Part shown: piece by piece, positions 1 through 64,000 of the stretch | Numbering within the stretch: the first letter of the stretch is position 1 | Layout of the letters: each line of letters begins with the position of its first letter | Source of the DNA: a virus | Reading direction: 5' to 3' (one strand) | Virus record (IMG/VR): IMGVR_UViG_3300012642_000011 | Location: 224,001 to 288,000 of that record | DNA: 64,000 nucleotides | The notes under the pieces: model-generated | Told to the model about the DNA's origin: nothing | The model's input: the letters and a program-made list of their open reading frames with translations, nothing else | The model's database searches: none | Position numbers and translations under genes: made by a program

Positions 1-496
1 CGTTGCCAGATACGTAGGCGTTATCAGTCAGCATGGCCTTACCAACCACCAGTACATAACCGGAAACTCGTGCGTTGCCAGTTACTCGCGCGTTGCCGGT
101 CACCCACACGTCGTCAGTCACTCGCGCTTCGTACTCCACTGTCGAGTTGCCTTCTACGCGTGCGTTGCCGGACACTTCTGCGTTCTCGAAAACCTCTGCG
201 TTACCGTACACCCACGCGTTGTCGGTTACTCGCGCGTTATCGTACACCTCCGCTTCACCGGACACTCGCGCGTTGTCGGTTACTCGTGCGTTACCGTAGA
301 CTACTGCGTAGTCGAATACTCGTGCATCATCGGCTACCCAAGCGTTTCCTGAAAGGTTACCCAGATGTTCCACATATCCGCCGAGATCACCGGCCTTCAC
401 GTCATGAGTAGGCAGGTCTCGTGTGGCTCGGATACGGTGGAGCGTGCGACCTTCATAGTGAATTGTTTCATCTGTTAATTCGAAGTGAGCGCTCAT
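1..496 (-). CDS. hexapeptide-repeat (LbH-like) paralog, N-terminal part only (3' end lies beyond window start); N-term MSAHFELTDETIHYEGRTLHRIRATRDLP... then xVxGNAxV repeats
   Basis: ATG at 494-496 after RBS GGAGAGAAAAC; N-terminal domain nearly identical to the six paralogs at 40.7-46.1 kb; 18-bp tandem DNA repeats. Confidence 0.6.
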   Translation of the reverse strand, partial: MSAHFELTDETIHYEGRTLHRIRATRDLPTHDVKAGDLGGYVEHLGNLSGNAWVADDARVFDYAVVYGNARVTDNARVSGEAEVYDNARVTDNAWVYGNAEVFENAEVSGNARVEGNSTVEYEARVTDDVWVTGNARVTGNARVSGYVLVVGKAMLTDNAYVSGN

Positions 497-723
497 GTTT
501 TCTCTCCTTAAGTAAGGTTAACTCTGGTTTGTCATTCTCATTGGTGATCGTATATTACCACAAGAATACGACATAAACAAGACGTGTATAAAACTTATGG
601 TGCGTATTTGCGCTTGTTATCGTTGTGGACTGTCGTTGTCGATAGGGACACAATCCAGTAATCCGTGAAAGAAGAATGCCCGCTATCCTCCCATGTGAAG
701 GTCAAGCGGGCATCCGTAGTTCG

Positions 724-975
724 TCAGGGCTGAAGAAGTTCATTCATGTAGTCGTGAGCATCCTTGGCGTTGTCGAACGTGGCGAGGGTCTCGCACGTCT
801 GATCGTCCCAGATGCTCACGGTAGCGTTCTTATGCGCGAGGTAGAACAGGTTAGAACTCACGTAAATGTTTGCTTCAGTCTGGACATCTCCGAACATGAT
901 GGATGCGCGAACCACCTCGGGCTTGCTAAGGGAAGTAGTCTCCATCTTGGTCAGTTCATTCAGGACGGTCTCCAT
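724..975 (-). CDS. hypothetical protein, 83 aa
   Basis: ORF with RBS GGAGAGATCATCATG; followed by conserved-loop terminator at 683-716. Confidence 0.5.
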   Translation of the reverse strand: METVLNELTKMETTSLSKPEVVRASIMFGDVQTEANIYVSSNLFYLAHKNATVSIWDDQTCETLATFDNAKDAHDYMNELLQP

Positions 976-1077
976 GATGATCTCTCCTTGTGAATGGTAG
1001 GTGTTCGCCTAAGTTGCTTTTCTTATTGTTGGAATCAATCTATCACGGGGGACGTGACGCGCGCAACTCTTAGGTTT

Positions 1078-1371
1078 TCAGATCAGCACACGCATCATGT
1101 CTGTGTCATCAATGGGGGCAAGCACACCGGCTCTCATCAAGTCGTGAGCAAACGCTGTACCGTACTTGCTTAGCGTCACCACGTTCTCGTGAGCGTGACG
1201 AGGATCGCGGATACCGATGACTTCACCCTCATCAGCAGTCCACGCGAGAAAGCGAAGCAGCAGGGTGCCATCGGTCTTCCAGACGGCGACAGCCTCATTG
1301 AAGTGGTTTCCGATGAAGGGGATCTTGAAGGGTGCAGTGGTAATGGCGGTGGTCTTGAAGATGCTTGCCAT
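1078..1371 (-). CDS. hypothetical protein, 97 aa
   Basis: ORF with RBS AGGAGAACATCATG. Confidence 0.5.
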   Translation of the reverse strand: MASIFKTTAITTAPFKIPFIGNHFNEAVAVWKTDGTLLLRFLAWTADEGEVIGIRDPRHAHENVVTLSKYGTAFAHDLMRAGVLAPIDDTDMMRVLI

Positions 1372-1615
1372 GATGTTCTCCTATGTTTGTACGGTGAGTA
1401 TCAAGGCAATCGTATCAGGCTATCAGCCTATTGTCTACATCATGTTTCGAGATCATTATGGCTATGTGGGGACACAGTAATAGGCTGCAGGATTGGACTT
1501 TTCCTATACCCGATTGTGTGATTGTTTTCGGATGCTGCGACACAATAGCCCGCCGTTCCATCGTGTGAGGTACTAGGCGGGCCATTGCTTATCTACTGTC
1601 TGCGATCAGCGCGGA

Positions 1616-1825
1616 TCACTCGGAGACGACGTACACGGTTCCGGTGGCAGGCTCGTAGTCTTCGGGGCAATTGTCGCACTGCCACGGGCCTTCCATCTTG
1701 GTGGTGCCGCGAATCTGCTCTTCAGTGTAGAAGTCGATGTGCTTGTTGCAGACCGCGTAGACTTCGTGGCCCTTGTTCGAGAATGCGAACAGGTCAACGA
1801 AAGGTGCGTTCGCGTTCTTCATCAT
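1616..1825 (-). CDS. hypothetical small Cys-containing protein (MMKNANAPF..., 69 aa)
   Basis: Internal start with RBS AAGGAGAGAGC; conserved promoter/leader variant at 1826-1930; upstream in-frame part of ORF 1616..1945 is translated leader. Confidence 0.5.
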   Translation of the reverse strand: MMKNANAPFVDLFAFSNKGHEVYAVCNKHIDFYTEEQIRGTTKMEGPWQCDNCPEDYEPATGTVYVVSE

Positions 1826-1937
1826 GATGCTCTCTCCTTGAGAGTAGTAGGGATCACTCTGTGTTACTCTCCCTGTTGATGACTCAACTCTACCATGGGG
1901 GACGTGACAAGTGCAACTCGTGCAACACGTTTTATTT

Positions 1938-2315
1938 TCAGTCAATGAAACCGTCCTCGATGATCCTTTCGATCATGTTGGCAGCCATGTTCAGAATGAT
2001 GTATGAATTGTCGTTTGCAAGGTCTGCAGCGTTTCGGAGCACTTCTAGTGCTTGCACGCTTTCCATCTCTGTAGGGGGTACTGTGTCCTCTCCTCCTGTA
2101 CCAGCGATGACAGCCCATGTGGAAATGGTCTGCTCTGCGTTCATGGTGTTGATGACCGTATCCGACCTTGAAAGCAACCAGCGGTAACGGATCTGGCTAA
2201 GGATGATGGCGGCGTTAGTAAGGATGGGGTGTTGCCCACGGATGAGGACGAGTTGACCTTGATCGTCTCTGCCCCATTGTGAGATGTTGATGTGTCGCTC
2301 ATGATTAATGCCCAT
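1938..2315 (-). CDS. hypothetical protein (MGINHERHINISQWG..., ~125 aa)
   Basis: Start chosen at Met preceded by GGAGACAATC; sigma70-like TTGCTA-17-TATCAT upstream (2340-2375, minus strand). Confidence 0.4.
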   Translation of the reverse strand: MGINHERHINISQWGRDDQGQLVLIRGQHPILTNAAIILSQIRYRWLLSRSDTVINTMNAEQTISTWAVIAGTGGEDTVPPTEMESVQALEVLRNAADLANDNSYIILNMAANMIERIIEDGFID

Positions 2316-2885: not shown

Positions 2886-3200
2886 TACTCTCCTAATAGA
2901 TGTTTAAAGATGTGAACGTGGTTGATTCATTCGAGGTGATGGGCGGGTGTTTGTTCACGACATGTTATCTCCTTGAAAGCATTGGTCTTATGTTGTTCTC
3001 TTGATCTGATGCTCTCAATGTACAATAGGAACTCTTCACAGTCAAGTCAAGTCGAAGAAATTGTCGTGACGTGTGTAGGTTTTACGAAGACAAGTGTACG
3101 CTTCACCTTTAGCGGGAGGTTAAGGGACACAATTTAAACATCCCGTTATGAAGACAACGGCCCGCTGTCCTCCCGTGTGGGATTCTAGCGTGCCGCTGGT

Positions 3201-7645: not shown

Positions 7646-7650
7646 TCTCA

Positions 7651-8462: not shown

Positions 8463-8777
8463 TCAAGCGACGATTTCGAGGATTTCCTCGCGGTGCGGGT
8501 GAATTCTCACCGTGACCCCATGGAAGTCAAGATCAAAGAACCGCTCGCCCTCGAACGCGTCACGACCCACCCCCACCACGGTGGCGACTCGCGGAGCATA
8601 GGCCCCGAGGTAGGCACCGGCGAAATCGGGATTAATCTTCAGCATCCATCCCACGCACTCGATATGATCGGGGTTGTCTTTCGACTTGATGACGCCGTTG
8701 TGCGACTTGACCAGAGCCAGCACGTCGCCTACCTTGATGGCGGACTGAAAGACGGGAGTGGTGTTGTAGTCCTTCAT
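8463..8777 (-). CDS. hypothetical protein (MKDYNTTPVFQ..., 104 aa)
   Basis: Conserved leader 8778-8860 with AAGGAGAGAAC-ATG; upstream 21 codons of ORF are translated leader. Confidence 0.55.
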   Translation of the reverse strand: MKDYNTTPVFQSAIKVGDVLALVKSHNGVIKSKDNPDHIECVGWMLKINPDFAGAYLGAYAPRVATVVGVGRDAFEGERFFDLDFHGVTVRIHPHREEILEIVA

Positions 8778-9016
8778 GTTCTCTCCTTGAGAGTGATGGT
8801 CTTGGGTTGTTCCCTTGACCTGATGAATCAATAGTACCACGAGGGACGCTCCATGTTCAAGTACCCTATGGAGTAATTTTTACGGCACGCTCGGCAGCAC
8901 AATCGCTGCGTCATTACCGTCTTGTAATGCTTGATTGACGAGATTGCGTTTATGGTGTAGGCTGGTTTCAGAACAACAGATCAGGGCGACTCGCCCCTCA
9001 CAGAAACGAGAACATC

Positions 9017-9481
9017 ATGAGCACGAACTTCTACCTTGTCCCCGCCGTTGCCGTGCAGTCGGGAATGGATCTGTCGTGGCTGACGAAGGTTCATCTGGGC
9101 AAGCGCTCCAATGGTCGGGTCATGCTTCAGGCGCTTGTGGGCGAGTGGGACAACGATAACACTGATGTCCTCAAGAAGCAGTCGGATTACGTGAGGATGG
9201 GTGCACCGCAGTTCTCCTTCATGGACGCTCCGGTGATCGACACGTGGGCTGTGATGCGCTCCATGCTGGTTTCCGGCGAGTTCGACGTGGTTGATGAGTA
9301 TGGACGGAGCGGGCTGATGATGGAGTTCATTAAGAGCGTGGAGGTTGACCCCTCTGGCGCTCACAGGGAGATGATGGACTACTTCGATTCGCTGAATCCC
9401 GGACACTACAGCCTGCCTTATCGTGAGCACCACTTCATGGACGATCAGGGATTCTCCTTCTCCGTCTCGGATTTCTCCTGA
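9017..9481 (+). CDS. hypothetical protein, 154 aa
   Basis: Alternative conserved plus-strand leader CAGGGCGACTCGCCCCTCACAGAAACGAGAACATC-ATG. Confidence 0.55.
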   Translation: MSTNFYLVPAVAVQSGMDLSWLTKVHLGKRSNGRVMLQALVGEWDNDNTDVLKKQSDYVRMGAPQFSFMDAPVIDTWAVMRSMLVSGEFDVVDEYGRSGLMMEFIKSVEVDPSGAHREMMDYFDSLNPGHYSLPYREHHFMDDQGFSFSVSDFS

Positions 9482-9530: not shown

Positions 9531-9683
9531 GGTCAGATCGGGGGACACAGAATCACGCACTACCCACCCCATCGACTCGGTGACAGATTGAAAGAATGAG
9601 CGGTTTGTCATCATTGCCATCATGGTGTAATCTGTTCTCAGAACAACCGATCAGGGCGACTCGCCCCTCACAGAAACGAGAAC

Positions 9684-10175
9684 ATGATGACCCTCACTGA
9701 CAAGGATTACAACACCACCACCGTGGTTGACATGGCGGGAGAGAGCCTCTCGCTGATCGAGTTCTTCGGCGACAATGCCAAGCACGGCTCCGTGGAGTTC
9801 TCTGAGGACGGTGATCGCGCCGATGTGATCATCGTGGAGGATCTGGAGTGGCACCAGAAGCGCGATCCCGAGCTGATGGAGAAGCTGACCGATGAGGAGG
9901 GTTGGCTCACCGAGGGCACCCGTGAAATCATCGCGCGTAACCTGTCCAAGATCGTGGGCGGCTCCGTCGAGATCGAGCTGAGCGAGATGGACGCTCACCC
10001 TGACAGCCCCTCCGTTGCCTTCGTCGCCAGCTACCATGTGAACCCTGAGACCACGCTGGGGACGCTCCACGAGATGTCCTACGGGTTCTACGCTGATGTG
10101 ATCAATGTGACTGATCCCGGCACCTTCGACTCCCCCTACGTGTTCGGCACACTGGCGAACCCCAGCTACTCCTGA
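9684..10175 (+). CDS. hypothetical acidic protein, 163 aa
   Basis: Same conserved plus-strand leader as 9017 gene. Confidence 0.55.
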   Translation: MMTLTDKDYNTTTVVDMAGESLSLIEFFGDNAKHGSVEFSEDGDRADVIIVEDLEWHQKRDPELMEKLTDEEGWLTEGTREIIARNLSKIVGGSVEIELSEMDAHPDSPSVAFVASYHVNPETTLGTLHEMSYGFYADVINVTDPGTFDSPYVFGTLANPSYS

Positions 10176-11260: not shown

Positions 11261-11453
11261 GGTGTGTAGGCGGGCGTGAGGGTGAGGGTGGGCAACAGGG
11301 GACACAGAATGTGTTCTTATGCTCGCGCTGTCGCCCTGACGACTGAAACAATGGGAGAGCGCCCTGTTTGACTTCAGTGTGAATGTGTGGCAGACTGTTC
11401 TTCAGTAGGTCGGGGGAGCCGCCCCTGACCATCTACTCTCAAGGGGAGAAAAC

Positions 11454-11906
11454 ATGTCGAAGACCGACTGGACTGCTTTCGTGGATGCCGCCGACTCCAT
11501 CCGCACGCGTGGCGACGAGCAGACGCACCTGATCTACCCGGACGGCACCTTCGAGGTGTTCGAGCGCTACAGCACCGACGCTCCCGACACCCCCGAGGAC
11601 GCGCTTCAGTGGGAGGGCAAGGACGACGAGGAGCGCGACGTGATCACGGGCGCGCAGGGGTGGAGCATCGCCGAGGGAATGAGCGGGGCGTTCCGCTACG
11701 ACGGCCCTCTGATGCACGAGTCGGAGTTCTTCTCCCCCGGCATCCTCTCCTGCCTGATGTGGGACCGGGACGCTCCCCTGCTGGTCGCCACGGCGCATGT
11801 GGCTGACTACTCCCCCGAGGCGTACGACGAGGGCGAGGAGGACTCTCAGGTGGGCGAGGTGTTCTCGTGGGTGACCCTCTACCGCGAGCCGGAGACCGAC
11901 GACTGA
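11454..11906 (+). CDS. hypothetical acidic protein, paralog family E
   Basis: Leader ...CTCAAGGGGAGAAAAC-ATG; similarity to 56927..57361. Confidence 0.55.
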   Translation: MSKTDWTAFVDAADSIRTRGDEQTHLIYPDGTFEVFERYSTDAPDTPEDALQWEGKDDEERDVITGAQGWSIAEGMSGAFRYDGPLMHESEFFSPGILSCLMWDRDAPLLVATAHVADYSPEAYDEGEEDSQVGEVFSWVTLYREPETDD

Positions 11907-12108: not shown

Positions 12109-12489
12109 TCAGTTCTCCCAGTAACGCGGGTTGGTCACCTCTTCGCCGTCGTAGTCGAGAGCAAGGATGACGCGGCCGATCTGATCGGCGTAGATGTTGG
12201 AAGCGGTGTAGTGAGTGACGATCTCGCTTGCGCGCTTGTAGGTCACAGTGACCGTATAGGTGTCGGAGAACGTGCAGACGATCTTCACATCCATGATACG
12301 CGCGCAGCCGGAGCGCTTGCCGGTCTTAGTGAAGGGGAGAATGTTTGCATGGAAGGAGAGGCTCCCGCGCTCTTCCGAACCGTAGAGGAAGTCACGCGCA
12401 CCCACGGCGGCGAAGTTCCAGAAGCCGATCTGCTGACGGATGGTATCGGCGACCTGCTTGTACTGGGTATCCTTGATGGTCTGCGACAT
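12109..12489 (-). CDS. hypothetical protein, 126 aa
   Basis: Conserved leader/promoter directly upstream. Confidence 0.55.
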   Translation of the reverse strand: MSQTIKDTQYKQVADTIRQQIGFWNFAAVGARDFLYGSEERGSLSFHANILPFTKTGKRSGCARIMDVKIVCTFSDTYTVTVTYKRASEIVTHYTASNIYADQIGRVILALDYDGEEVTNPRYWEN

Positions 12490-12543
12490 GTTCTCTCCTT
12501 GAGAGTTGTGGTCTTGGGTGGCTCCCTCGACCTGATGACTCTT

Positions 12544-12573
12544 ACTCTACAGCACAGGACGCTCCACGGTCAA
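12544..12573 (-). promoter_or_regulatory. sigma70-like promoter exemplar: TTGACC-18-(TG)TAGAGT with conserved spacer GGAGCGTCC
   Basis: Read on minus strand: ...TTGACCGTGGAGCGTCCTGTGCTGTAGAGT... Confidence 0.5.
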
Positions 12574-12842: not shown

Positions 12843-13226
12843 TCACTCGGCGGGAGCGAGGAACGCGGCGACCTCATCATCGGTCAGGGACTCGTAGTGC
12901 GAGTAGCCTTCCTCATCCACGCTCTCACGCACCACCAGCACGGGACCGAACGGGTAAGCCCCCTGCATGATGCCCAGACGGTCGATGACGTGCTTGTGCG
13001 GGTTGGGGCGACCGAACTTGTAGATCCCCTCATCGTCCGCCATGACCTCGATGCCGTCGCCGTAAGCATCGCGCGGCATGTAGGTGATGGTGCCCAGACC
13101 GGCGACCTCACGGAAGGCGGGGAAGTTGTAAGCCTCGGGGTCGGCGTTGATGGTCACCTCGATGGCGCGCGGGGTGGAGTCCAGATCGCCGGGGACGAGA
13201 ACAGCCTTGATGTTCTTCGTGGTCAT
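12843..13226 (-). CDS. hypothetical protein, paralog of 21148..21522 (MTTKNIKAVLVPGDLDSTPRAIEV...)
   Basis: ~60% identity by eye to 21148..21522 product; conserved leader. Confidence 0.55.
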   Translation of the reverse strand: MTTKNIKAVLVPGDLDSTPRAIEVTINADPEAYNFPAFREVAGLGTITYMPRDAYGDGIEVMADDEGIYKFGRPNPHKHVIDRLGIMQGAYPFGPVLVVRESVDEEGYSHYESLTDDEVAAFLAPAE

Positions 13227-13436
13227 GGTCTCTCTCCTTGAGAGTCGTGAGGCTTGCCGGTTGCTTACCCCTTGATGAATCCCACTATACACGACAGTAC
13301 GCGCAGCCGTCAAGCGTATTATCGCCCCTCCAGCAGAGCAATCACTGTATGCTGTGAGGGGACACAGAATTCGAGTTGACGGTTTGAAAAAACCGCCCCA
13401 GTGCTCATAATCAGCACTGGGGCGGCGGGGCGCTTG

Positions 13437-13775
13437 TCAGCGTTCGAGACCAGCCTCGAACGCGGCGATCACGAGGTGTGACACAGTTGAGTAGACATCC
13501 TCGATCCCGCTGTAGCCGGAGCTGTGACCCTCACCATAGGAGTAGTTAAACACTCGATCAGCGATGTGGTCGGGAATGTCGTCGGTCAGGTAGTCATCGC
13601 GGAACTGCTTAGCGTGGCGCTCCCGTTCCTCGCGCTCGATTCGGTAGCGCTCCTCACGCTCGATGCGACGCGCCTCCTGCTTGGCGCGCTCCTCTTCCGC
13701 CTGGGCTTCAGCGAGAGCCTGCTTGGCGGCGTCGAGGGCGGCTTCGGCTGCGATCACTTCTGGGGACTTCTGCAT
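13437..13775 (-). CDS. hypothetical coiled-coil protein (EERAKQEARRIEREERYRIEREERER)
   Basis: Conserved leader; charged repeat region. Confidence 0.5.
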   Translation of the reverse strand: MQKSPEVIAAEAALDAAKQALAEAQAEEERAKQEARRIEREERYRIEREERERHAKQFRDDYLTDDIPDHIADRVFNYSYGEGHSSGYSGIEDVYSTVSHLVIAAFEAGLER

Positions 13776-13999
13776 AATACTCTCCTTGTGGAGTCGTGGT
13801 CTTGGGCTGCTCCCTTGACCTGATGAATCAATAGTACCACGGGGGACGCTCCGCCGTCAAATCTATCAATCGTGGTAGTGCTATAACATCTCGGATTGGT
13901 CGAGGCGCTGGATGACTTAGGTATCAGGGGACACAAGAATTGCGACAACGAGGATAAGAACACGCCCCCATCCTCGCGGTAAGGATGGGGGTGTGTGAG

Positions 14000-14230
14000 T
14001 CAGAATCGGGCGGAACCGGCGAGGATAGCCATGGTGTCAGCCATGGTCTCGCTGTAGCGCATCTTGATCTTCGCGCGCAGGTGCTTCATTCGCAGGATGC
14101 GGCGGATGTGATGCTCGTCCAGTTCAGTCTCACCGGCGAGGGTGTCCAAGTAGATGCCGGAGTACTCGTTGTCGATCTCTTCGGTGATAGCGTCGATGCG
14201 GGCGGCGTCGTCGGCGGTCATCTGCTTCAT
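14000..14230 (-). CDS. hypothetical protein, 76 aa
   Basis: Conserved leader 14231-14320. Confidence 0.5.
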   Translation of the reverse strand: MKQMTADDAARIDAITEEIDNEYSGIYLDTLAGETELDEHHIRRILRMKHLRAKIKMRYSETMADTMAILAGSARF

Positions 14231-14450
14231 GATTGTCTCTCCTTGAGAGTCGTGGTCTTAGGTTCTTCCCTCGACCTGATGAAAGAAATCTATCACAGAC
14301 ATGGAGCAGGCGTCAAGTCGAGCGGTCAAGATTATTTCATCATCTTCCAGAGGGGACACGGAATATGGTATATGCCACACTTCTTGCATCCATCAGTGTG
14401 AACAGGGCGATGCATGATCACACTGATGGATGCTCACACCTTGCACACTG

Positions 14451-19453: not shown

Positions 19454-19852
19454 TCAGGCGTCCTCGTTCTTCTTCAGGGCGTTCTTGTCAGCGTCGATTC
19501 CGAAGAGGTCGAGGTGGGTATAGAATACCGCGTAAGCCTTCATCTTTGCCATCTCCTCCACAGTGAAGCGGGGATTGAGTTCGGAGGTGAAAGCGACAAT
19601 CTCGATGACGTAGTTGGACGCGCGGTGCTTCAGGTGGGCGATCACCTTCTCCGCAGAGTAACCCTTGTCCAGAAGCTTCTGCGCGCTGTCAGCAAGAGCC
19701 TTCTGCGCGGTGTAGAACTGCATCGAGGCAGCACGGGAGCCGATGCTGGTCACGATGCCCGCGTCCAGATCGTCCTTGATGATCTGCTTCTGGTTCTCGT
19801 AGAGGGCGTTGGCGTCCTTGATGAACTTGTTGAGTTCGTTGGCGATGGTCAT
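19454..19852 (-). CDS. hypothetical protein, 132 aa
   Basis: Conserved leader; conserved-loop terminator at 19395-19440. Confidence 0.55.
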   Translation of the reverse strand: MTIANELNKFIKDANALYENQKQIIKDDLDAGIVTSIGSRAASMQFYTAQKALADSAQKLLDKGYSAEKVIAHLKHRASNYVIEIVAFTSELNPRFTVEEMAKMKAYAVFYTHLDLFGIDADKNALKKNEDA

Positions 19853-20084
19853 GGTATCTCCTTGAAGAGTGGTGGGTCTTGCCGGTTGCTTGCCCCTTGA
19901 TGACTCCTACTCTACCAGCAAGACGCTCCATTATCCAACCCCAGAGCAATATTGTGTTCTTCAACAGTAAGCGCACACTCGGATGGACGAGTCGCTCTGG
20001 GGACACAAATTAATGCTTAAGTATCCTATACGCACGCATGCCCGCCACCCCTCTGTCGTAGAGTTCTGGCGGGCATGCTGCATG

Positions 20085-20453
20085 TCAGCGAGAGGTGTTC
20101 AGAACCGAAAAAAGGTCATTCATAAGCATGGCGGCAACACGGTTCCGTGACGCCTCATCTGCAGGCACGGGAACGTCCGACATTGCCATGTGGATGAGCC
20201 TCTTCGTCTGGTCAGACAGGAACTCCTCGGCGATCTGGGTATCGGTCGCACCGGCGTCACGCTTTCTCTTGAGGTTGCCAGCAATCATCTTACGATGGCG
20301 GGCGTCCATGAAAGCCTTGAGGTCATGAGAAGAGATCGTTTCAACAAGGTTCGATGTGCTTGCGACCTCTACAGCCGACTTGTAATCCCCCTCAGCACGA
20401 TTGATGAACTGGTCGATGATGAACGTGACGATGTCCTGCTGATCCTGCTCCAT
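20085..20453 (-). CDS. hypothetical protein, 122 aa
   Basis: Conserved leader. Confidence 0.55.
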   Translation of the reverse strand: MEQDQQDIVTFIIDQFINRAEGDYKSAVEVASTSNLVETISSHDLKAFMDARHRKMIAGNLKRKRDAGATDTQIAEEFLSDQTKRLIHMAMSDVPVPADEASRNRVAAMLMNDLFSVLNTSR

Positions 20454-20695
20454 GATGTTCTCCTTGAGAGTGTTGGTCTCGGGCTGTTCCCTTGACCTGA
20501 TGAAATGATCTTACCACACGGGACGCTCCACGGTCAATCTTTCCATGAAACTTCATGCATGAATGGTTCCGCGTTCGGACCTATTCATGCATGGCCCCTC
20601 CCCTGTGGGGACACAATATGGGTGACCACTGTGCGCACGATAAAGCCCCGCCGTCCCTCCGTGATGGAGTTCAGGCGGGGCGTCGGGGGTCAGGA

Positions 20696-20947
20696 TCAGA
20701 GCGTGATGACCTCGATAGCGGCGATCTCCGACAGGTTGATGAACAGGTCAGCGGTGCTCTTGACGACGGCGGGGTACTTACCCTGCGCGTGGTCATCGGT
20801 CAGGATCTGGAAGCCCTCGGCGGACATGCGAGCATCCTCCAGCGGCTCGGGGGCAGTCTTGACCTGCACGCCGGACTTCAGCGTGATGACGACCTGACCC
20901 TCGCGGTGATCGAACTTGTAACCGATAAAGTTCTTGTTCTGCTCCAT
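20696..20947 (-). CDS. hypothetical protein, 83 aa
   Basis: Conserved leader; terminator 20640-20690. Confidence 0.55.
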   Translation of the reverse strand: MEQNKNFIGYKFDHREGQVVITLKSGVQVKTAPEPLEDARMSAEGFQILTDDHAQGKYPAVVKSTADLFINLSEIAAIEVITL

Positions 20948-21147
20948 GATGTTCTCCTTGAAAGTGTTGGTCTCGGGTGGCTCCCTTGACCTGATGGAAT
21001 GACCTTACCACACAGGACGCTTCTTGTGCAACCCACATTGGAGGAGAAGGGAGGGGACACAAGATGTTGCCACCAGAGCACTACGAACATGACAAAGCCC
21101 CGCCGTCCCTCCGTGATGGAGTTCAGGCGGGGCATTATCGGAGTGAG

Positions 21148-21522
21148 TCACTCCACGGGAGCGAGGATCTGGGCGAGCTCTTCATCGGTCAGCGAGTCGT
21201 AGTGGGACTCACCCTCGTCATCCACGCTCTCGCGGATCACCAGCACCGGACCGAACGGGTACGTTTCGTCCATGAGACCCAGACGATTGATGACGTGCTC
21301 GTGGGGGTTGGGAGTGTCGAACCTGTAGATGCCCTCGTCGTCGGCCACGACCTCGATACCGTCACTGTAGTTCTTACGCGGCATGTAGGTGATCAGACCC
21401 AGCCCCGCGACCTCTCGAAAGACGCGGAATGCGCCAGCACCCTCTTCGATGGTCATTTCCACGGCACGCGGGGCAGAGTCGAGGTTGGCGGGAACAAGCA
21501 CGGCCTTGATGGTCTGCGACAT
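21148..21522 (-). CDS. hypothetical protein, paralog of 12843..13226
   Basis: MSQTIKAVLVPANLDSAPRAVEM...; conserved leader. Confidence 0.55.
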   Translation of the reverse strand: MSQTIKAVLVPANLDSAPRAVEMTIEEGAGAFRVFREVAGLGLITYMPRKNYSDGIEVVADDEGIYRFDTPNPHEHVINRLGLMDETYPFGPVLVIRESVDDEGESHYDSLTDEELAQILAPVE

Positions 21523-22892: not shown

Positions 22893-23114
22893 TCAGTCCT
22901 CGATGTCCTCTGCAACGGTGTAGTCCGCGCTCAGCGACACCCACTTTGCGCCACGGTAGTTGCCCGAGGACAGCGCGACATACTTCATACCATCGAGCTT
23001 AGCCGACTCCAGCATTTCGATCAGCTCGTCGATGCTCTCCGCTGCGTCGTCCAGCGAGTAGGCCAAGCCGCCGCCGCTGAGGATGATGGTATTCTGATCG
23101 GTGATCTCGCTCAT
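22893..23114 (-). CDS. hypothetical small acidic protein, 73 aa
   Basis: Conserved leader variant. Confidence 0.5.
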   Translation of the reverse strand: MSEITDQNTIILSGGGLAYSLDDAAESIDELIEMLESAKLDGMKYVALSSGNYRGAKWVSLSADYTVAEDIED

Positions 23115-42779: not shown

Positions 42780-43022
42780 AATCTCTCCTTGAGAGTGGTA
42801 AGGGTCGCTCTGTGTTGCTCTCCCTTGCTGATGAGTCAATAGTAACACGGGGGACGCTCCATGCGCAACCTGACAGCAGAAATAATCTAGGGAGGCTCAC
42901 AACCTCTCGATTGGATCACTTCAATTCGTGATAGTATGCTCACACATACCTATGGGGACACATAACTTGCTGTAAACAGTCAAGTAGCACAGTAGGGATA
43001 CAACTACTGTGCTACTTGGGTT

Positions 43023-48624: not shown

Positions 48625-49038
48625 TCAGAGGTTGCCGTTCATGTCAACGACGAACACGTAGGCGAGCACCTGACCATCTTCTCCGATCTCGGTGCTGACG
48701 ACACCCTTGTGGACGAGGCTGGCGAGGACGCCACCACGCTGGTTCTTGGACTCCCAGTTGTCCATCGGCATGATGTCGAAGTCGCCCCAGAAGTCGAACT
48801 CGCCGGAGGCTTCCAGAGCATCCTGGATGATCTCGGTGACCAGCAGGGTCTCCTTCTCGGTCAGGTTGTACTTCGCCTTCACCTCAGCGGCAACGGAAGC
48901 GGCGGTCTTGGTCTCGGTCTCGGTGCTCTCACCGGAGGCATCCAGAACAGCCTCAGTCATCTCGGCCATCAGCAGGGACTCCTTCTCGGTCATCTTGAAC
49001 TGAGTCTTCAGGTCAGCGGCGGTCTTGTTCTCGGTCAT
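48625..49038 (-). CDS. hypothetical acidic protein with internal ~27-aa duplication; paralog of 49438..49722
   Basis: TEKESLLMAEMTEAVLDASGE / TEKETLLVTEIIQDALEASGE. Confidence 0.5.
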   Translation of the reverse strand: MTENKTAADLKTQFKMTEKESLLMAEMTEAVLDASGESTETETKTAASVAAEVKAKYNLTEKETLLVTEIIQDALEASGEFDFWGDFDIMPMDNWESKNQRGGVLASLVHKGVVSTEIGEDGQVLAYVFVVDMNGNL

Positions 49039-49437
49039 GATGCTCTCCTTGGGGAGTGGTAGGGATTGCTCTGTTTTGCTCTCCCTGTTGATGACTCAAC
49101 TCTAACATGTGGGGACGCTCCATGTCAACTGGTTTGAGCAATAATTTTTAGGCAGCCGAAACGCACAGTGTTATCACAGGAAACAGAAAGGGACACAGAA
49201 CTTCTCGCAGTATCAAAAAGTGGACTGATTGCATAGGCAGCATGCAACCAGTCCACTCAAGTGAGGTTCTCTTGTTGGTATCACTCTACAACAGGGGACG
49301 CTCCGTTGTCAACTCGATCTCGGGACAATCTGCAGCCTTTTGGTCAGATAGGCATTAGGGACACAAGATACGAGTGCCACCTAAAAAGGAAGGGGAGAGC
49401 ACAGCGCCTTGTGGTCTCCCCTTCCTGTGGCAGTGTG

Positions 49438-49722: not shown

Positions 49723-49992
49723 GATGTTCTCCTATGAGTAGTGATGTTGCTTCTTGCAACATTTCGTATGTACAGAAATAATCTTACATGAGTAATTGGA
49801 ACATGTCAACCTACACCATGATCAGAACAGATGCAAGGAGGTAACGAGTTCGTCGTTTCGGTCTAGCACGGGGACGCTCCACGATCTTCGGAAATCATGT
49901 TGCACATGAAGCGTCCCCGTGGTAGAGTTGAGTCATCAACAAGGGAGAGCAACACAGAGCAATCCCGCACTACTCTCATCAAGGAGAACATC

Positions 49993-50268
49993 ATGAGCAA
50001 GCGTCGTGATGACATGGTTATCGCAGAACTGTCTTTTGAACTGGGTCGCATGGGATATGACCCGTATGGCACCTCTGAGCAGATCAAGATGCTGCCTCTT
50101 CGGGGTGGTCATCGGCTCTTCATTGACGGTCAGGAAGCCATGCAGGTCATGCAGTACATGGGGATGGCTGATCTTGCCTACTACGATTGTGGTCGGGGTG
50201 TGATCGAGACGGATAAGGGCGTAGATGATCTTCACGATCTGTTCCGCTCCATCCTGAAGGTCCAGTGA
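49993..50268 (+). CDS. hypothetical protein (MSKRRDDMVIAELSF..., 91 aa)
   Basis: Plus-strand copy of the second leader family ...CATCAACAAGGGAGAGCAACACAGAGCAATCCC...CAAGGAGAACATC-ATG. Confidence 0.55.
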   Translation: MSKRRDDMVIAELSFELGRMGYDPYGTSEQIKMLPLRGGHRLFIDGQEAMQVMQYMGMADLAYYDCGRGVIETDKGVDDLHDLFRSILKVQ

Positions 50269-50995: not shown

Positions 50996-51337
50996 TCAGG
51001 CGTGAGCGGCCTTGTAGGCGTCGATCACGTCCTTGGGGAAGCGGCCACGGGTGCCGACCTTGTAGCCGTTCGCCTTGGCCCACTCGCGGACCTTGGCGGC
51101 GTCCTGACCCACCTTCAGGTCGGGGTTGACCTTGTAGGAGCGGACGACGCGGCGGACGGAGTTCTCGATGATCTTGTCGGACTTCTCGATCAGGAACGTC
51201 TCGTCCTTGATCTTCTCCACGGACTTGGAGTTCAGGGGAACCTCGTACACACCCTTGTTGGGGATGCGCACCTGAACCAGCTTGGCACCCATCTGCTTGG
51301 TGATCGCGTCCTGCAGGAAAGCCTGGGTCTTCGTCAT
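50996..51337 (-). CDS. lsr2: Lsr2-like DNA-binding protein, ~113 aa
   Basis: C-term [31 protein letters not shown] matches the Lsr2 C-terminal DNA-binding domain; conserved leader. Confidence 0.65.
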
Positions 51338-51580
51338 GATTTTCTCCTTGATGAGAGTATTTCGGGATTGCTCTGTGTTGCTCTCCCTTGCTGATGAATC
51401 AAATGTACCACAGGGGACGCTCCATGTGCAACATGATTTCCGAAGATCGTGGAACTTTTCTACCCGTGAGAACAAAAGGCAGCATGAAGACCACACACAG
51501 ACAACCCACAGGGGACACAAGATGAGAGCAACAAGAAAGGGTGTGGACGTTTGTATGCGGCCACACCCCTCTTTGATCAA

Positions 51581-54029: not shown

Positions 54030-54186
54030 TCAGTGACCCTGCGCCGCGTTGGCGGCGGCCACGACGGCGAATGGCTCGCCCTCGAAGGAGGTGTGGGTCT
54101 CACCCACCTTCACCGCCACGGCGGCGGAGGCAAGGGCCTCCACGTTGCCGATGGTGATGGCCTTGTTGTTGAGGATGATCTCCATG
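54030..54186 (-). CDS. very small ORF (28-51 aa depending on a 1-nt reading ambiguity near 54121) behind a conserved leader
   Basis: Conserved leader 54187-54270 with AAGGAGAACATC-ATG; frame not resolved confidently. Confidence 0.25.
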
Positions 54187-54445
54187 ATGTTCTCCTTGTG
54201 GAGTAGTAGGGATTGCTCTGTGTTGCTCTCCCTGTTGATGACTCAACTCTACCATGGGGGACGCTCCACGTGCAAGTCTCGGCAAGATTATTTTTGAGGA
54301 TGTGTAAGCCGGCATGATGTGTGCAGTTCCGCAGGGGACACAAGAGAGGGCGAAATAATCTTCTGCCCTCATGTTGACTTTCGCCTCTCCTTGCCCTAGG
54401 CTTAGAGAAGAAGCAAGGAAACATTCGACTCACGAAAGAGAGACC

Positions 54446-56660: not shown

Positions 56661-56926
56661 TCCCGACATGCGCCCACCGATGATGACTCGGTGGGCGCAT
56701 GTTATCGACCAGCGTTCTCTGTAGGCAAAGACCACGATCTATTCCGAGATCGTGAACGCATGTTGAGGCAAGAGGACATAGGGGACACAGAATGCCATAC
56801 AGAGCGGGGAGTGAGTAGCCTGAAAGTTTTCCTTGCACGGCTTGACATGATCACCGCCATGTGTAATGATTGATTCATCAGGTCGAGGGAACAGCCTAAG
56901 ACCATCACTCTCAAGGAGAGACTATC

Positions 56927-57361
56927 GTGGATCTTTACGATCAGTACAAGGATGCAGCAGAGGCTATTGACGACGCCGAGTACGGTGTGGCATTCCTCGT
57001 GCAGCCGGATGGTCAGTTCGAGCAGATGGATGAGTCTGCTCACTACAGCCTCCACTGGCATGGTGTGGATGAGCAGGGACGTGACATCCTCAAGGATGAG
57101 GATGATGGTGATGTCACTGACTGGGAGATCGCCACTGGCATGACGGGTCAGTACGGCTACAACGATCCGCTCATGCACGAGTCGGAGTACTTCGGTGAGA
57201 ACCTCCTTGCCAGACTCATGGAAGACCGCACGGAGCCTTTGATGATCGCACTGGCTGTTGTGGGTGACTACTCGGAGGAAGCGTTCGAAAGTGAGGATTC
57301 TGAAGATCTGGGAGAGCCTTTCTCGTGGGTGATCCTCTACCGTGAGCCTGATTCCCTCTGA
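56927..57361 (+). CDS. hypothetical acidic protein, paralog family E (GTG start)
   Basis: Plus-strand copy of canonical leader GATTCATCAGGTCGAGGGAACAGCCTAAGACCATCACTCTCAAGGAGAGACTATC-GTG. Confidence 0.55.
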   Translation: MDLYDQYKDAAEAIDDAEYGVAFLVQPDGQFEQMDESAHYSLHWHGVDEQGRDILKDEDDGDVTDWEIATGMTGQYGYNDPLMHESEYFGENLLARLMEDRTEPLMIALAVVGDYSEEAFESEDSEDLGEPFSWVILYREPDSL

Positions 57362-61685: not shown

Positions 61686-61913
61686 TCAGTCGTACAGAAG
61701 GATTTCCTGCACGTCGTTGCGGAGGGAGTTCACGATCTTGTTGGCGACCTTGTTGCCACCCACCTCGGAGGGGTCAACGTTCAGGCGGATGGAGAAGGAA
61801 CGCCCCTCGGGGATGACCACGAAGGAACCACCGGCACGGGTGACGAGGTTATCGATGGCATCCTCCTGCTTCCACGAAAGACGCTCGGGGGAGGAAACGG
61901 TGATCGAAGACAT
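61686..61913 (-). CDS. hypothetical protein, 75 aa
   Basis: RBS TAGGAGAGCATCAC-ATG. Confidence 0.5.
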   Translation of the reverse strand: MSSITVSSPERLSWKQEDAIDNLVTRAGGSFVVIPEGRSFSIRLNVDPSEVGGNKVANKIVNSLRNDVQEILLYD

Positions 61914-62118
61914 GTGATGCTCTCCTACGGAGTAAGTGGGAATCGGCTCTTCCTCTTCCCTGCTTGATACTCATAATCTATCACAGGGGACGCTCCACTG
62001 TCAACCATGTTTTGCACGTTGCTTCCGTGAGTAAACGATAGGCATAGGGACACAAGATGAGCGATCAATGAATAGGGGCGGCAGAGATGTGTTCTCTGCC
62101 GCCCCTATCGCGTGTTGG

Positions 62119-62550
62119 TCAGGGCTTGAAGTAGTGCCCGTTCATCATCTCCACGTCGATGGTCGCCATCACTGTCTCGGCCATCTTCTCGTAGTTCCCG
62201 CCCAGCATCTGGTACAGCAGGTTGGACGAGTCAGCGGAAAGCGTCTTGTTCATGTGGTCCTCTACGAAGGCAGCGTCATCCTCGAAGTGACCGAAGTGCG
62301 CATCATCAGCCGAGCGCACCAGATCGTCCAGATCATAAGCGGTCTTCATCTTCATGTTGAACAGAGTGGTATAAGCGTCGTACTTTCCAGCGTCCTCATC
62401 GTTCTCGACAGAGAACAGAAGGGGGTTCTCGATAGTCTCGACAGTGCTACGCAGATTCTCGATAGCATGGTAGATGCTCCCCACCGTGCCATCATGCTCG
62501 ATCTCGTAAGCGTCGCCCTGTGCGCTGTAGACAGTCATCGTCTGGGTCAT
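62119..62550 (-). CDS. hypothetical acidic protein, 143 aa
   Basis: RBS GAGGAGAGATC-ATG. Confidence 0.5.
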   Translation of the reverse strand: MTQTMTVYSAQGDAYEIEHDGTVGSIYHAIENLRSTVETIENPLLFSVENDEDAGKYDAYTTLFNMKMKTAYDLDDLVRSADDAHFGHFEDDAAFVEDHMNKTLSADSSNLLYQMLGGNYEKMAETVMATIDVEMMNGHYFKP

Positions 62551-62642
62551 GATCTCTCCTCATGAGTGAATGGTCTCGGATGGCTTCCTTAACCTCTGTG
62601 ATTACTCTACACGAAGGGACGTTTCACTGTCAACACGAGCGA

Positions 62643-62918
62643 TCACACCTCAAAACGCATGGAATAGAGTGGGTTCGCGCCGATCTTGTTCTCAGTCACG
62701 GAATAGCGAAGTTGTGTCATCGTGTTTGGAATGTATTCAGATCCGTTCATCCCCACCTCGTGATCCTTGATCCCCAGATGCAAGAACTCCTTGCTCACCT
62801 GATCCATGGCATCTTGTGCCGTCTTGTGGGCAGAGACGAACATATCGCCGCTCACGTCAATTGAATCCCGTGTCACAACAAGTCGCATTATGGTCAAAAT
62901 GTACACAGTATCGATCAT
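62643..62918 (-). CDS. hypothetical protein (MIDTVYILTIMRLVV..., 91 aa)
   Basis: RBS AAGGAGAAGAAC-ATG. Confidence 0.45.
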   Translation of the reverse strand: MIDTVYILTIMRLVVTRDSIDVSGDMFVSAHKTAQDAMDQVSKEFLHLGIKDHEVGMNGSEYIPNTMTQLRYSVTENKIGANPLYSMRFEV

Positions 62919-63086
62919 GTTCTTCTCCTTGTTTGTTTTGATTATTGTCAATGACACACTATATTTTCAGAACCCTTTTGTCAACACAGTCCCCACATCG
63001 AAATAAGGGGACACAGATCATGTGATGGCTGTAGTGACGATAGTACAACTAGTAGCACGAACAGGATCACAGAAGGAGGGAAGCAC

Positions 63087-63281
63087 ATGAACCTCAGAAG
63101 AGACAGAACCATAGCAGGAATCATTGCCTTGCTTATGCTCGTTGCTGTAGGCATCTATGCCCTCTACTCGGACATCCCTCTCGTGAGCGTAGGTGTTCTC
63201 ATCCTCGTCATCCTAGGGATCAGGGAGGTCTGGAAAGTACGCAAGGAACCAGACGCTCACGACACAGCAAACGACGACTGA
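63087..63281 (+). CDS. small membrane protein, 64 aa
   Basis: RBS GAAGGAGGGAAGCAC-ATG; two hydrophobic helices. Confidence 0.5.
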   Translation: MNLRRDRTIAGIIALLMLVAVGIYALYSDIPLVSVGVLILVILGIREVWKVRKEPDAHDTANDD

Positions 63282-63421
63282 TTCATAAGGGACGCTCCAT
63301 CGTGGTCTCCGTCTGGAAAATGTTTTGACCCAGAGTTGACACGTGTACAGAACGTGTGCAATGATTGATTCATCAGGTCAAGGGAACAGCCCAAGACCAT
63401 AACTCTCAAGGAGAGAGCATC

Positions 63422-63622
63422 ATGAAGGAAACTTTCAACCAGCCCGCCGCCCAGTGGACCTGCGATTGCGGCACCCTGGTGGAGCGGTGGCGCGGGCAGT
63501 CGGATGTCCAGTGCTACAACTGCGGCCAGTGGTACAACGCCTTCGGTCAGCGTCTGGTGAGCAACTGGGCCAGCGCCGCCCGCATGGCCGAGTACGGCGA
63601 GGTGTGGGACGAGGACTACTGA
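63422..63622 (+). CDS. small Cys-rich zinc-ribbon-like protein, paralog of 24012..24212
   Basis: Plus-strand canonical leader GATTCATCAGGTCAAGGGAACAGCCCAAGACCATAACTCTCAAGGAGAGAGCATC-ATG. Confidence 0.55.
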   Translation: MKETFNQPAAQWTCDCGTLVERWRGQSDVQCYNCGQWYNAFGQRLVSNWASAARMAEYGEVWDEDY

Positions 63623-63776
63623 GCATAGCCTCAGTAGCAGCCCGCCTAGTACCTCACACGAGGGAACGGCGGGCCGCTCCATATTGATTACTTGCTGGAT
63701 TTTGCATTCATGGGGTTATCATGGTAAGATAGGTAGACCATGAAAATACTCTGCAAATCAGCAAGGAGAATGGCGC

Positions 63777-64000
63777 ATGAGTGAAATCTTTGGAAGTTGG
63801 AACATCTGGGTGATCCTCGCTGTGACTATCGTCAGTTTCGCTCTGTTCGCTAAGGCGATACGTATGCGAGGCGATCATGACAGCAAGGCGGGAGGCGTAG
63901 CAGTTAATTCCGGTCTCTGCATCCTCGGCGTAGGCGTGATCGTGATGTCCATGATTGGTATTGCCTACCTGTCCGCGTCTTACACCAGCCATGTGGCAAA
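63777..64000 (+). CDS. membrane protein, 5' part (continues beyond window)
   Basis: Promoter TTGCAT-17-TAAGAT at ~63700-63730; RBS AAGGAGAATGGCGC-ATG. Confidence 0.5.
   Translation, partial: MSEIFGSWNIWVILAVTIVSFALFAKAIRMRGDHDSKAGGVAVNSGLCILGVGVIVMSMIGIAYLSASYTSHVA

Follow-up and report, generated by a model that had tools for sequence, protein, structure and literature searches.

An array of promoter-leader-terminator cassettes with strand-locked junction motifs on a probably plasmid-like conjugative element

Why should dozens of small and mostly unrelated genes be preceded, on either DNA strand, by nearly the same sequence of about 85 nucleotides (nt), and what kind of replicon carries such an arrangement? 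The question is raised by a stretch of 64,000 nt, termed the window in the following, which covers positions 224,001 to 288,000 of the IMG/VR virus record IMGVR_UViG_3300012642_000011. A sequence-only reading of the window had described every gene as a cassette of promoter, leader, open reading frame (ORF) and terminator and had been reminded of phage early-gene arrays or of cassette-type gene capture. The answer favoured on balance by the present analysis is that the window forms an accessory arm, rich in ORFs of no known function, of a plasmid-like conjugative element of ~332 kb, in which more than 100 insulated units are combined with strand signals acting at the level of DNA.

By our own gene calls, the window is an array of ~107 small ORFs, mostly single-gene units, and 62.6% of it is coding. 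The gene set consists of 105 called ORFs and two TnpB genes; the promoter and terminator statistics given below use the 105. The minus strand carries 78 of the 107 genes and the plus strand 29. The same motifs are found in the flanking contigs L023 and L026, which places at least 9 kb of further array past either end of the window. The description of every gene as a cassette holds in so far as most genes are separate units; a recognisable promoter is present in only ~60% of them, and some genes are grouped in short operons.

Promoter and leader in front of unrelated genes

The module of ~85 nt is composed of a -35 box, a spacer of 17-18 nt, a -10 box, a leader of ~50 nt and a Shine-Dalgarno site. 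All 18 sites of family 1, the four of family 2 and the two of family 3 that had been cited by the sequence-only reading were found to read as described, and the copies are 85-95% identical. Across 17 aligned copies of family 1, the conserved stretch opens at the -35 box and closes at the ATG, with no relationship among the flanking sequences or among the ORFs. The similarity is thus not limited to the Shine-Dalgarno region and extends well beyond it. All-against-all BLASTP comparison showed that the ORFs behind the leaders are dissimilar, save for a few paralogue pairs and a six-member solenoid family.

Counted by alignment and covariance model, the leader is present in ~40 copies, with homology running from the -35 box to the ATG. 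An nhmmer profile built from 22 sites found ~40 copies at E<1e-4, and the covariance model of the leader gave 40 matches at the same threshold, almost all of which end exactly at the start codon. The 31-nt leader core TCAGGTCGAGGGAACAGCCCAAGACCACAAC occurs in 10 copies at up to 3 mismatches, against none in shuffled sequences. It was possible to parse 33 modules into four families, with 17 members in family 1, 8 in family 1b, 7 in family 2 and 2 in family 3.

The promoter had been assigned to the sigma-70 class, and this assignment is borne out. Its consensus is TTGACA, a spacer of 17-18 nt and TAnnnT, often with TG before the -10 box, which agrees with what is required of a sigma-70/sigma-A promoter (a TTGACA-like -35 and a TAnnnT -10 lying 16-19 bp apart upstream of a gene). 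A promoter score of at least 9 was reached by 42 of the 105 ORFs, where ~1 was expected, and by none on the antisense strand; a score of at least 8 was reached by 62 (~60%), with ~12 expected from shuffles. An independent consensus scan within 20 kb found 28 sites, where shuffles gave 11.4±3. The spacing between -10 box and ATG concentrates at 53-57 nt.

The leader, which reads TCATCAGGTCRAGGGAACAGCCCAAGACC...ACTCTCAAGGAGAG, is the most conserved part of the module, with 90-100% conservation per column. Counted from a predicted start ~7 nt after the -10 box, the 5' untranslated region (UTR) is ~48-50 nt long and opens with CAUCA, and a two-tier hairpin lies 4-6 nt from the predicted 5' end. 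In a plain MAFFT alignment of 25 leaders, 96% of the cells in the hairpin are paired, compared with 87% in shuffles and 40-62% in slid controls. Changes on both sides were seen in four of the seven pairs (UA to GC in six sequences, CG to GC, AU or UA, and GC to CG or AU), and a model-based alignment of 68 matches agrees on the hairpin. The covariation among the copies shows support for the predicted hairpin structure, and a 2x2 purine internal loop (GA/AA) is kept in all leader families. A strong Shine-Dalgarno sequence, AAGGAGA, stands 6-8 nt before the AUG. A small helix, CUCY/GGAG, may form weakly over this site; it displays no two-sided changes and is therefore neither supported nor refuted.

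The best family-1 module (33455..33541, minus strand) has the -35 box TTGCGT, the spacer ATGGAGCGTCCCCTGTGG, the -10 box TACTAT and a 54-nt leader ending in ATG; it matches the leader core exactly and scores 76.9 bits. Further family-1 promoters with their leaders lie on the minus strand at 8775..8860, 12487..12573, 13773..13860, 20451..20537, 20945..21030, 21520..21607, 24210..24296 (its ORF is paralogous to that at 63422), 34017..34103, 35938..36024 and 37473..37558, as well as at 23112..23198, a copy absent from the earlier list. At 14228..14316, 25227..25312 and 39709..39795, also on the minus strand, the family-1 leader stands behind a promoter spacer without the box GGAGCGTCC, which is discussed below. 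Two family-1 cassettes on the plus strand (56842..56929 and 63336..63424) have kept the leader and have no spacer box; the first of them starts with GTG and is conserved within a diverged block of the variant contig L030 (see below). A family-1-type promoter at 40486..40603 (minus) is followed by a longer and different leader hairpin.

Family 1b is a divergent family newly found beyond the original family 1. Its promoters and leaders lie on the minus strand at 13224..13313, 19850..19937, 29040..29128, 32409..32497, 61911..62004 and 62548..62633, and its leaders are also present on the plus strand at 11368..11456, where the hairpin GGTCGGGGG/CCCCTGACC carries compensatory changes, and at 38329..38380 (coordinates of the covariance-model match). 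Family 2 is represented on the minus strand at 1823..1925, where the spacer contains the box GTCACGTCCCCC of the C type (see below), at 49036..49128 and at 54183..54285. Newly found members, likewise on the minus strand, are located at 42777..42868, at 51335..51430 upstream of an Lsr2-like gene, and at 37911..38004, where the family-2 leader stands behind a family-1-type promoter. The family-2 cassette at 49901..49995 (plus) has the only box-like spacer in plus sense (GAAGCGTCCCC, one mismatch). Both family-3 modules are on the plus strand, at 8935..9019, with a simple hairpin GGGCG ACU CGCCC, and at 9605..9686. One further promoter and leader (2961..3055, minus; nhmmer E=1.2e-11, 34 bits with the covariance model) is an orphan that is followed only by ATG TCG TGA; the gene that comes after it (2472-2885, Phage_VG64-like) has a separate ribosome-binding site, located 75 nt downstream. 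The orphan module is probably the remnant, or scar, of a gene that was replaced.

Relatives of the module were not met with in phage, plasmid or species genomes. Megablast of 12 kb against 50,697 phage records and blastn of the 88-nt module consensus against plasmids and phages gave no match, and the exact degenerate leader pattern had 0 matches in IMG/VR and in the 185,579 species genomes. A promoter-plus-box pattern gave 16 single matches in IMG/VR, which were dismissed as chance since they had neither the motifs nor a profile match; nine single matches of the leader pattern in JGI metagenomes were likewise put down to chance. No Rfam family matched at gathering score in the window, L023 or L026, and none at E<=1 in the region 33.0-38.2 kb.

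Terminators and junction motifs

Downstream of the genes, the 90 nt fold at -30 kcal/mol or below in 73 of 105 cases (~70%), as compared with 23 for intragenic controls and 11 for shuffled sequences. The stems are 12-20 bp long, and a GC-rich hairpin placed after the stop codon has the form of a terminator; the tails are T-rich yet interrupted (e.g. GTTGTTCTTTCC). It had been claimed that each gene is followed by a terminator from one family. The strong hairpins account for the sound part of this claim, and only 24 of them, about a quarter of the terminators, share one recognisable design. This two-tier design has a GC-rich lower stem, a purine-rich internal loop (e.g. AGAAU/AGGAC), an upper stem of 3-5 bp and an apical loop (e.g. 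ACAC). It was located on the minus strand at 678-711, 1548-1583, 2421-2458, 3159-3194, 19402-19439, 20040-20074, 20645-20681, 21097-21133, 24379-24418, 24796-24832, 28663-28700, 29239-29277, 31404-31440, 35589-35625, 37194-37229, 37655-37692, 40132-40167, 48577-48611, 50353-50390, 50948-50982 and 58685-58723, and on the plus strand at 11921-11955, 58592-58627 and 63640-63674. In an alignment of 20 members, which was structured by hand to fit the fold and hence leans toward it, 99.6% of the cells are paired and two-sided changes are seen at 11 of the 14 pairs. Mismatches are almost absent, and G-U pairs occur only in the mRNA sense, which indicates that the fold forms as RNA.

The recurrent sequence GTGTCCCC had probably been taken for an arm of these terminators. 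It has no inverted partner, so that this role was rejected, and it belongs to a motif that is locked to one DNA strand. The sequence GGGGACACA is present in 77 copies on the plus strand and 5 on the minus strand, counts that also hold for GGGACAC, with ~4.6 expected per strand, and GGGGACAC in 62 copies on the plus strand and 4 on the minus. The logo of this A-type motif is W-G-GGGACACA-R-N-A-T; it is ~11 nt long, lacks dyad symmetry and has unconserved flanks. Not one of the 77 copies lies inside an ORF, though ORFs make up 62.6% of the window. The first bases of the motif on the plus strand are at 644, 1468, 2388, 3123, 3668, 4687, 7702, 8337, 9541, 10239, 10964, 11298, 11983, 12622, 13358, 13927, 14352, 14947, 15083, 15989, 16597, 17351, 19350, 19999, 20607, 21053, 22075, 22623, 22818, 23934, 24342, 24751, 25344, 28146, 28618, 29193, 31369, 32157, 32598, 33066, 33574, 34154, 34903, 35551, 36611, 37164, 37605, 38764, 39817, 40028, 40681, 42401, 42954, 44482, 45189, 46218, 47409, 48514, 49189, 49357, 50300, 50913, 51511, 52546, 53952, 54334, 54817, 55182, 55828, 56258, 56781, 57426, 57994, 58645, 61610, 62046 and 63007.

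Exactly one copy of the A-type motif or of the related C-type box (see below) is present in 44 of 58 tandem junctions between minus-strand genes, in 11 of 12 tandem junctions between plus-strand genes and in 11 of 15 convergent junctions; 8 of the 16 divergent junctions have none. The motif is placed at a median of 13-26 nt past the terminator hairpin (4-30 nt) and 21-149 nt ahead of the next -35 box. Since it comes after terminators and before the next promoter, it sits in untranscribed DNA, on the same strand whatever the direction of the neighbouring gene. A role as an upstream activator site was rejected because the motif stands anywhere from 21 to 149 nt away from the -35 box and its orientation is independent of the gene, and a role as an ECF-sigma promoter was rejected because nothing is conserved 15-20 nt downstream. 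Short, asymmetric, repeated intergenic motifs are also known as the stoperators of cluster A mycobacteriophages, which serve one repressor, and as the start-associated sequences of cluster K. Stoperators are oriented by transcription, whereas the orientation of the present motif follows the DNA strand and not the gene.

Four copies of GTGTCCCC are in reverse orientation, and two of these (19316 and 29607) are held within a repeat of ~120 nt that also contains leaderless-type promoters (-10 hexamer, 6 nt, ATG) at 19248 and 29539 on the minus strand; a third promoter of this type is at 34979 on the plus strand.

The sequence-only reading had also proposed a dedicated regulator, for which the spacer box GGAGCGTCC seemed a likely site. 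This proved too simple, as the box is tied to the DNA strand and not to promoters. The B-type box, GGGGACGCTCC(A) on the plus strand, is the sequence TGGAGCGTCCCC when read in minus sense, as it had been noted in the spacers. Its 8-mer GACGCTCC has 44 copies on the plus strand and 1 reverse complement. The 8-mer GGACGCTC has 40 copies (plus strand: 5147, 8844, 9223, 9989, 10060, 10853, 11768, 12557, 13844, 16109, 20521, 21591, 23181, 23862, 24280, 32106, 33525, 34088, 34409, 36008, 36226, 37542, 37989, 38560, 40579, 42327, 42852, 46574, 49113, 49296, 49872, 51415, 52152, 53146, 53226, 53632, 54259, 55876, 61988 and 63290), of which 11 are inside ORFs on either coding strand and others in junctions without a -10 box. 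The plus-strand cassettes with the same leader (56927 and 63422) do without the GGAGCGTCC box. Being found in ORFs and in junctions without a -10 box, and being missing from plus-strand cassettes, the box is neither a required part of the promoter nor a simple operator. A C-type box, GGGGACGTGAC(A), occurs in 15 copies on the plus strand (1049, 1899, 15465, 16858, 17546, 39201, 39548, 41560, 48154, 52044, 52591, 57076, 59610, 60481 and 61003) and in none on the minus strand. Other over-represented 8-mers (GCGTTACC, CCGGACAC and ACTCGCGC) were traced to the 18-nt coding repeats of the solenoid genes and are not signals.

The orientation of the motifs is uniform over 83 kb, comprising the window, L023 (14 versus 0) and L026 (24 versus 0). 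In relatives of 42% GC content, YCGTCGTCCCC is found 6-7 times against 0, at a spacing of 0.8-1 kb; the arm is the same, and so is the orientation with respect to an abrupt switch in base composition. As both core and orientation are kept in these relatives, GTCCCC/GGGGAC is a conserved oriented feature of the element family. In the present element, the switch lies ~5.9 kb to the left of the window, at a perfect 32-nt palindrome (L023 16908-16939, window coordinate ~-5950), where the GC skew abruptly changes from ~-0.45 to ~+0.45. It is flanked (L023 14500-18400) by ~2.5 kb of C/A-rich repeats on one side and by G/T-rich repeats on the other. From its composition, the switch is a candidate origin of replication or transfer.

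The only processes known to follow a single DNA strand independently of transcription are replication, single-strand transfer, translocation and end-processing. Chi- or KOPS-type polar signals on the leading strand, read by a translocase or a helicase-nuclease and unrelated to expression, would fit motifs that are G-rich, lie to the right of the palindromic switch on the strand where GC skew is positive and AT skew negative, keep one orientation for at least 83 kb and retain their core in relatives of different GC content. This explanation is nevertheless unlikely, because the A-type motif is strictly intergenic, occurs once per 0.8 kb and lies 4-30 nt past terminators, and because three distinct extended consensus sequences of 10-12 nt are present, with no enrichment across the switch. 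No Chi- or KOPS-type signal is known to be restricted to intergenic DNA in this way.

Variation and exchange of parts

Contigs of the element from six samples (ENA, JGI and Logan; L001-L006 and L023-L028) are 100% identical over common stretches of up to 20 kb, a figure that covers the contigs fetched and compared out of the 20-23 listed per protein. Such identity suggests one clone sampled repeatedly or a very recent spread. The sole diverged variant, L030, was reached via the 88-89% identical homologues of a 144-amino-acid protein; it is 96.8% identical and its divergence is mosaic. (The solenoid proteins were abandoned as a route to relatives, since they led to thousands of unrelated proteins, and the two long contigs examined were ordinary prophages.) In blocks of L030 that are 10-35% diverged, the -35 and -10 hexamers, the leader and the TAGGGGACACA core (three sites) are intact and the flanks and the spacer are changed. 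This pattern of kept and altered positions demonstrates purifying selection on the promoter hexamers, the leader and the core of the junction motif, as judged from the two variants. The loop of the terminator at 59561-59602 is inverted relative to L030 4924-4965 (ATAACC versus GGTTAT) with identical stems, that is, a palindrome-mediated flip.

It could be argued that recent tandem duplication or gene conversion left the repeated parts behind as neutral remains without a common function, as might be suggested by the close identity of the copies, by some paralogous pairs and by the six-member solenoid family. This view is largely refuted and is considered very improbable: the ORFs behind near-identical leaders are mostly unrelated, the borders at the -35 box and the ATG are sharp, the hairpin changes are compensatory, and hexamers, leader and motif are preserved in the diverged blocks of L030.

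The edges of the main diverged block lie in a terminator loop and in the leader of the next gene, the positions to be expected if shared parts were exchanged by homologous recombination. The joining of a family-1-type promoter to a family-2 leader at 37913 also shows that parts recombine. In L030, the one variant compared, a block has been replaced and no cassette has been gained or lost.

These observations bear on site-specific capture of cassettes as in integrons, with GGGGACACA as the core of a recombination site that bounds each cassette, in direct repeats between which genes may face either way. Such a mechanism would explain why there is one site per junction, in a single orientation whatever the gene direction and never in an ORF, and why paralogous cassettes on opposite strands (24012, minus, and 63422, plus) leave the orientation of the junction motif unchanged. 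The homology of these paralogous cassettes, however, covers the leader and the ORF only and ends well short of the motifs, and the main L030 block has its edges in terminator and leader with two copies of the motif inside it. Neither an integrase or recombinase gene (among the Pfam matches) nor an attC-like site was seen in the window; the motif of ~11 nt, without dyad symmetry or conserved flanks, bears no likeness to the imperfect inverted repeats of 57-141 bp that define attC; and B- and C-type copies occur inside ORFs. In place of the IntI integrase, attI site and common promoter of an integron, there are cassettes with promoters of their own. Capture of the integron type is accordingly regarded as quite improbable.

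The replicon, its closest analogues and the role of the array

Beyond the switch, the genes (L051 10001-22043) encode, in order, an acidic repeat protein of 680 amino acids, T2SSE, a TadZ/ParA-like protein, RcpC/CpaB, AAA_10, TcpE, T2SSF and a further T2SSE that contains an intein, as judged by a homing-endonuclease match. The cluster is Tad-pilus or type IV secretion-like, and its gene order is common to four other metagenome contigs; homologues of the acidic protein in the same order were found on contigs of 337 kb and 347 kb (42% GC) and on two shorter ones. The same switch stands ahead of the homologous acidic protein gene in the 42%-GC relatives L052 and L053, and the contigs of two further relatives end at the repeat-rich switch. 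Homologues of the AAA_10 ATPase are present in 506 plasmid records, compared with four records labelled as phage, one of which is annotated as a conjugative transposon protein and three of which have no annotation. No virion or packaging gene was found in the 96 kb read. The element is thus probably plasmid-like and conjugative, with a size of ~332 kb, and not a phage, and the phage reading of the array has become doubtful.

The phage alternative in its best form would be an early-gene or host-takeover array of a jumbo actinobacteriophage, as in the host-takeover module of SPO1 or the hyperplastic regions of T4. Many small ORFs of no known function with individual strong promoters would be expected there, and there are matches to Phage_gp86, Phage_VG64, Lsr2-like, RNA 2'-phosphotransferase and Ku-like families. 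The flanking RNA ligase, just outside the window, has its nearest relatives in large Arthrobacter and Microbacterium phages (40% amino-acid identity), and a size of 332 kb would suit a jumbo phage. Against it stand the secretion-like cluster and the ParA-like gene that adjoin the array, the distribution of AAA_10, the lack of virion genes in the 96 kb and of tRNA genes in the window, and the lack of any DNA match in the 50,697 phage records or in IMG/VR. Moreover, the nearest isolated phage, Arthrobacter phage Racecar, which gave the best RNA-ligase match, is densely packed and has no such architecture. A jumbo phage is thus held to be an unlikely source of the array, and the conjugative plasmid-like element is retained as the preferred carrier.

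The host is probably an actinobacterium, a view that is based on the GC content of 52%, three Lsr2-like genes, the leaderless-type promoters and solenoid homologues from Corynebacterium durum. Leaderless mRNAs are common in actinobacteria. Among the 105 ORFs, only 12 Pfam families were matched. The recognisable genes include an RNA 2'-phosphotransferase and are a mix typical of defence, anti-defence and cell-envelope functions. On the minus strand are a FemAB-family peptidoglycan bridge transferase (52675-53832) and the three Lsr2-like DNA-bridging proteins (31453-31950, 40183-40488 and 50996-51337); the flanking contig L026 carries the RNA ligase (14804-15808) and a GmrSD-type nuclease (17153-17995). 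Six paralogous YdcK-type beta-solenoid genes with an 18-nt coding periodicity stand in a row at 40763-46084 (minus; also 66-322). They have variant promoters of their own and near-identical terminators (AGTCAGGTAGCACAGTAG...), cause a local dip in GC skew, and have homologues in prophages as well as in C. durum. Two IS605-family TnpB (OrfB/Cas12f-like) genes, at 5786-7246 and 25837-27048, both on the plus strand, lie between cassettes in low-GC islands (~47% GC). The closest genomic relatives of the second are in metagenome-assembled genomes of Lachnospiraceae (57% amino-acid identity), which is uninformative on the host.

Among known systems, the PeSLs (promoter-early stem-loops) of T4-like phages come closest to the cassettes. 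They are conserved intergenic composites of ~100 bp in which a strong sigma-70-type promoter is joined to a stem-loop terminator and a Shine-Dalgarno site, and they have been proposed as homology patches for modular shuffling (PMC2839356, PMC4122927). As with PeSLs, dozens of copies flank and insulate small ORFs of no known function in a plastic region, the plasticity being evident here from the 12 Pfam families among 105 ORFs and from the mosaic divergence against L030. All three components are present on a similar scale of length, with the stem-loop separate from the promoter, whereas terminator and promoter overlap in the PeSL. The carrier also differs, since PeSLs reside in T4-like myoviruses and the present array in a plasmid-like conjugative element of a Gram-positive, probably actinobacterial host. 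Further differences are the long conserved 5' UTR with its covarying hairpin, the strand-locked motif at each junction, and the scale, which exceeds 120 units and 80 kb; mini-circles and the gain or loss of cassettes are features of the PeSL. The architecture can be described as a PeSL-type cassette of promoter and terminator in a variant form, carried by a replicon in which it was not expected. Two additions were not found described: the structured 5' UTR, which is conserved, and the strand-locked junction motif, whose core is kept across the family of elements.

A second comparison is offered by the anti-defence islands in the leading regions of conjugative plasmids, where Frpo/ssi elements act as single-strand promoters and Frpo also primes the complementary strand (PMC11541004). 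Small, mostly uncharacterised genes beside transfer functions, a bias in orientation and strand-specific DNA signals are common to both. Only ~73% of the genes share an orientation in the present array, the promoters are of the ordinary duplex type, and the motif, unlike a folded ssi, is short and linear. No Frpo/ssi-like hairpin was seen over the -35 and -10 boxes; the inverted repeats of at least 16 nt in the region 30-40 kb are terminators or lie elsewhere in ORF or leader sequence. The leading regions known to us are all far shorter than this array.

With regard to the whole replicon, the element resembles the oral giant plasmids called Inocles. These are plasmid-like elements with VirB4/VirD4, an origin and a terminus defined by skew, and ~95% unknown genes, and their marker InoC has an N-terminal Replic_Relax domain and is >70% identical among members (PMC12340149). 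The likeness lies in the size (~330-395 kb), the metagenomic origin, the ~95% of unknown genes and the VirB4-type transfer genes. In the present element (332 kb, against ~350-395 kb for Inocles), AAA_10, TcpE, T2SSE and an abrupt skew switch were found, and VirD4, a terminus and circularity were not seen. The protein P0123, which follows the origin-like switch, has no Pfam match, and its homologue P0127 has a borderline Replic_Relax match (24.9 bits on PF13814, against a cut-off of 25.3). The GC content of 52% sets the element apart from Inocles, and its Lsr2 genes suggest an actinobacterial host and not Streptococcus. The word 'intergenic' does not appear in the Inocle paper, nor are cassettes or a motif of this sort described there (PMC12340149).

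On the preferred reading, that of an accessory arm of insulated units, host RNA polymerase with the housekeeping sigma factor (sigma-A) would transcribe each unit separately, starting ~7 nt after the -10 box. The 5' hairpin may stabilise the mRNA against decay that depends on the 5' end, or it may be a common handle for one factor, and the long hairpin with its T-rich tail would end and insulate the unit. About one-third of the units use homologous promoter-leader copies before unrelated ORFs, and about one-quarter share one terminator design. Shared parts of this kind would give uniform, context-independent expression, and the patches of ~90-nt homology would let units be swapped by recombination, as proposed for the PeSLs.

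The motifs with the GGGGAC core may be DNA-level signals for a directional process that starts at the origin-like switch. Since 78 of the 107 genes point toward the switch, the motif-bearing plus strand is their template, which is the geometry of a plasmid leading region. The likeliest role for the motifs, put forward tentatively, is the handling of single-stranded DNA, by second-strand priming or by the loading of a protein during transfer or replication. A narrower version must be called speculative and is itself not probable: the motifs, lying on the strand that is transferred or serves as lagging template, would start complementary-strand synthesis, or load a protective or processing protein, once per unit. 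More than 120 establishment genes over more than 80 kb could in this way become double-stranded and expressible unit by unit soon after entry.

Several points weigh against this account as a whole. Neither a relaxase gene nor an oriT was found in the 96 kb read, which leaves the role of the plus strand as the transferred strand unanchored. The motif is absent from 14 kb read across the skew switch, where the transfer genes are organised in operons, and ~27% of the genes point the other way. A strict scan for hairpins with a T-run (at least 5 T in 8 positions) found 16 sites against 13.5±3.1 in shuffles, which is no enrichment, and many terminators would thus need to work on weak U-tracts. The conservation of the leader is far above what a stabilising hairpin by itself would require, so that a sequence-specific partner is likely. 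Where transcription starts and ends, and whether the genes are early or co-regulated, is deduced from sequence, and some of the PHROG and Pfam matches are associated with phages.

If the narrower proposal for the motifs is true, expression from the uniform promoter-leader parts would come in a single synchronous burst. This would be an undescribed organisation for a leading region of great size, and its GTCCCC core, being conserved, would make it common to the Inocle-like family. Whatever the role of the motifs, much of such an element consists of self-contained units in regular array, assembled from a small set of interchangeable parts. This may be used for predicting which genes are co-expressed, and the promoter, 5' UTR and terminator may be of value as strong portable parts for Gram-positive and actinobacterial hosts. 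The array also offers a concrete model for how hundreds of genes of no known function are gained and swapped, and its strand-locked motif is a directly testable clue to the way in which the element is replicated or transferred.

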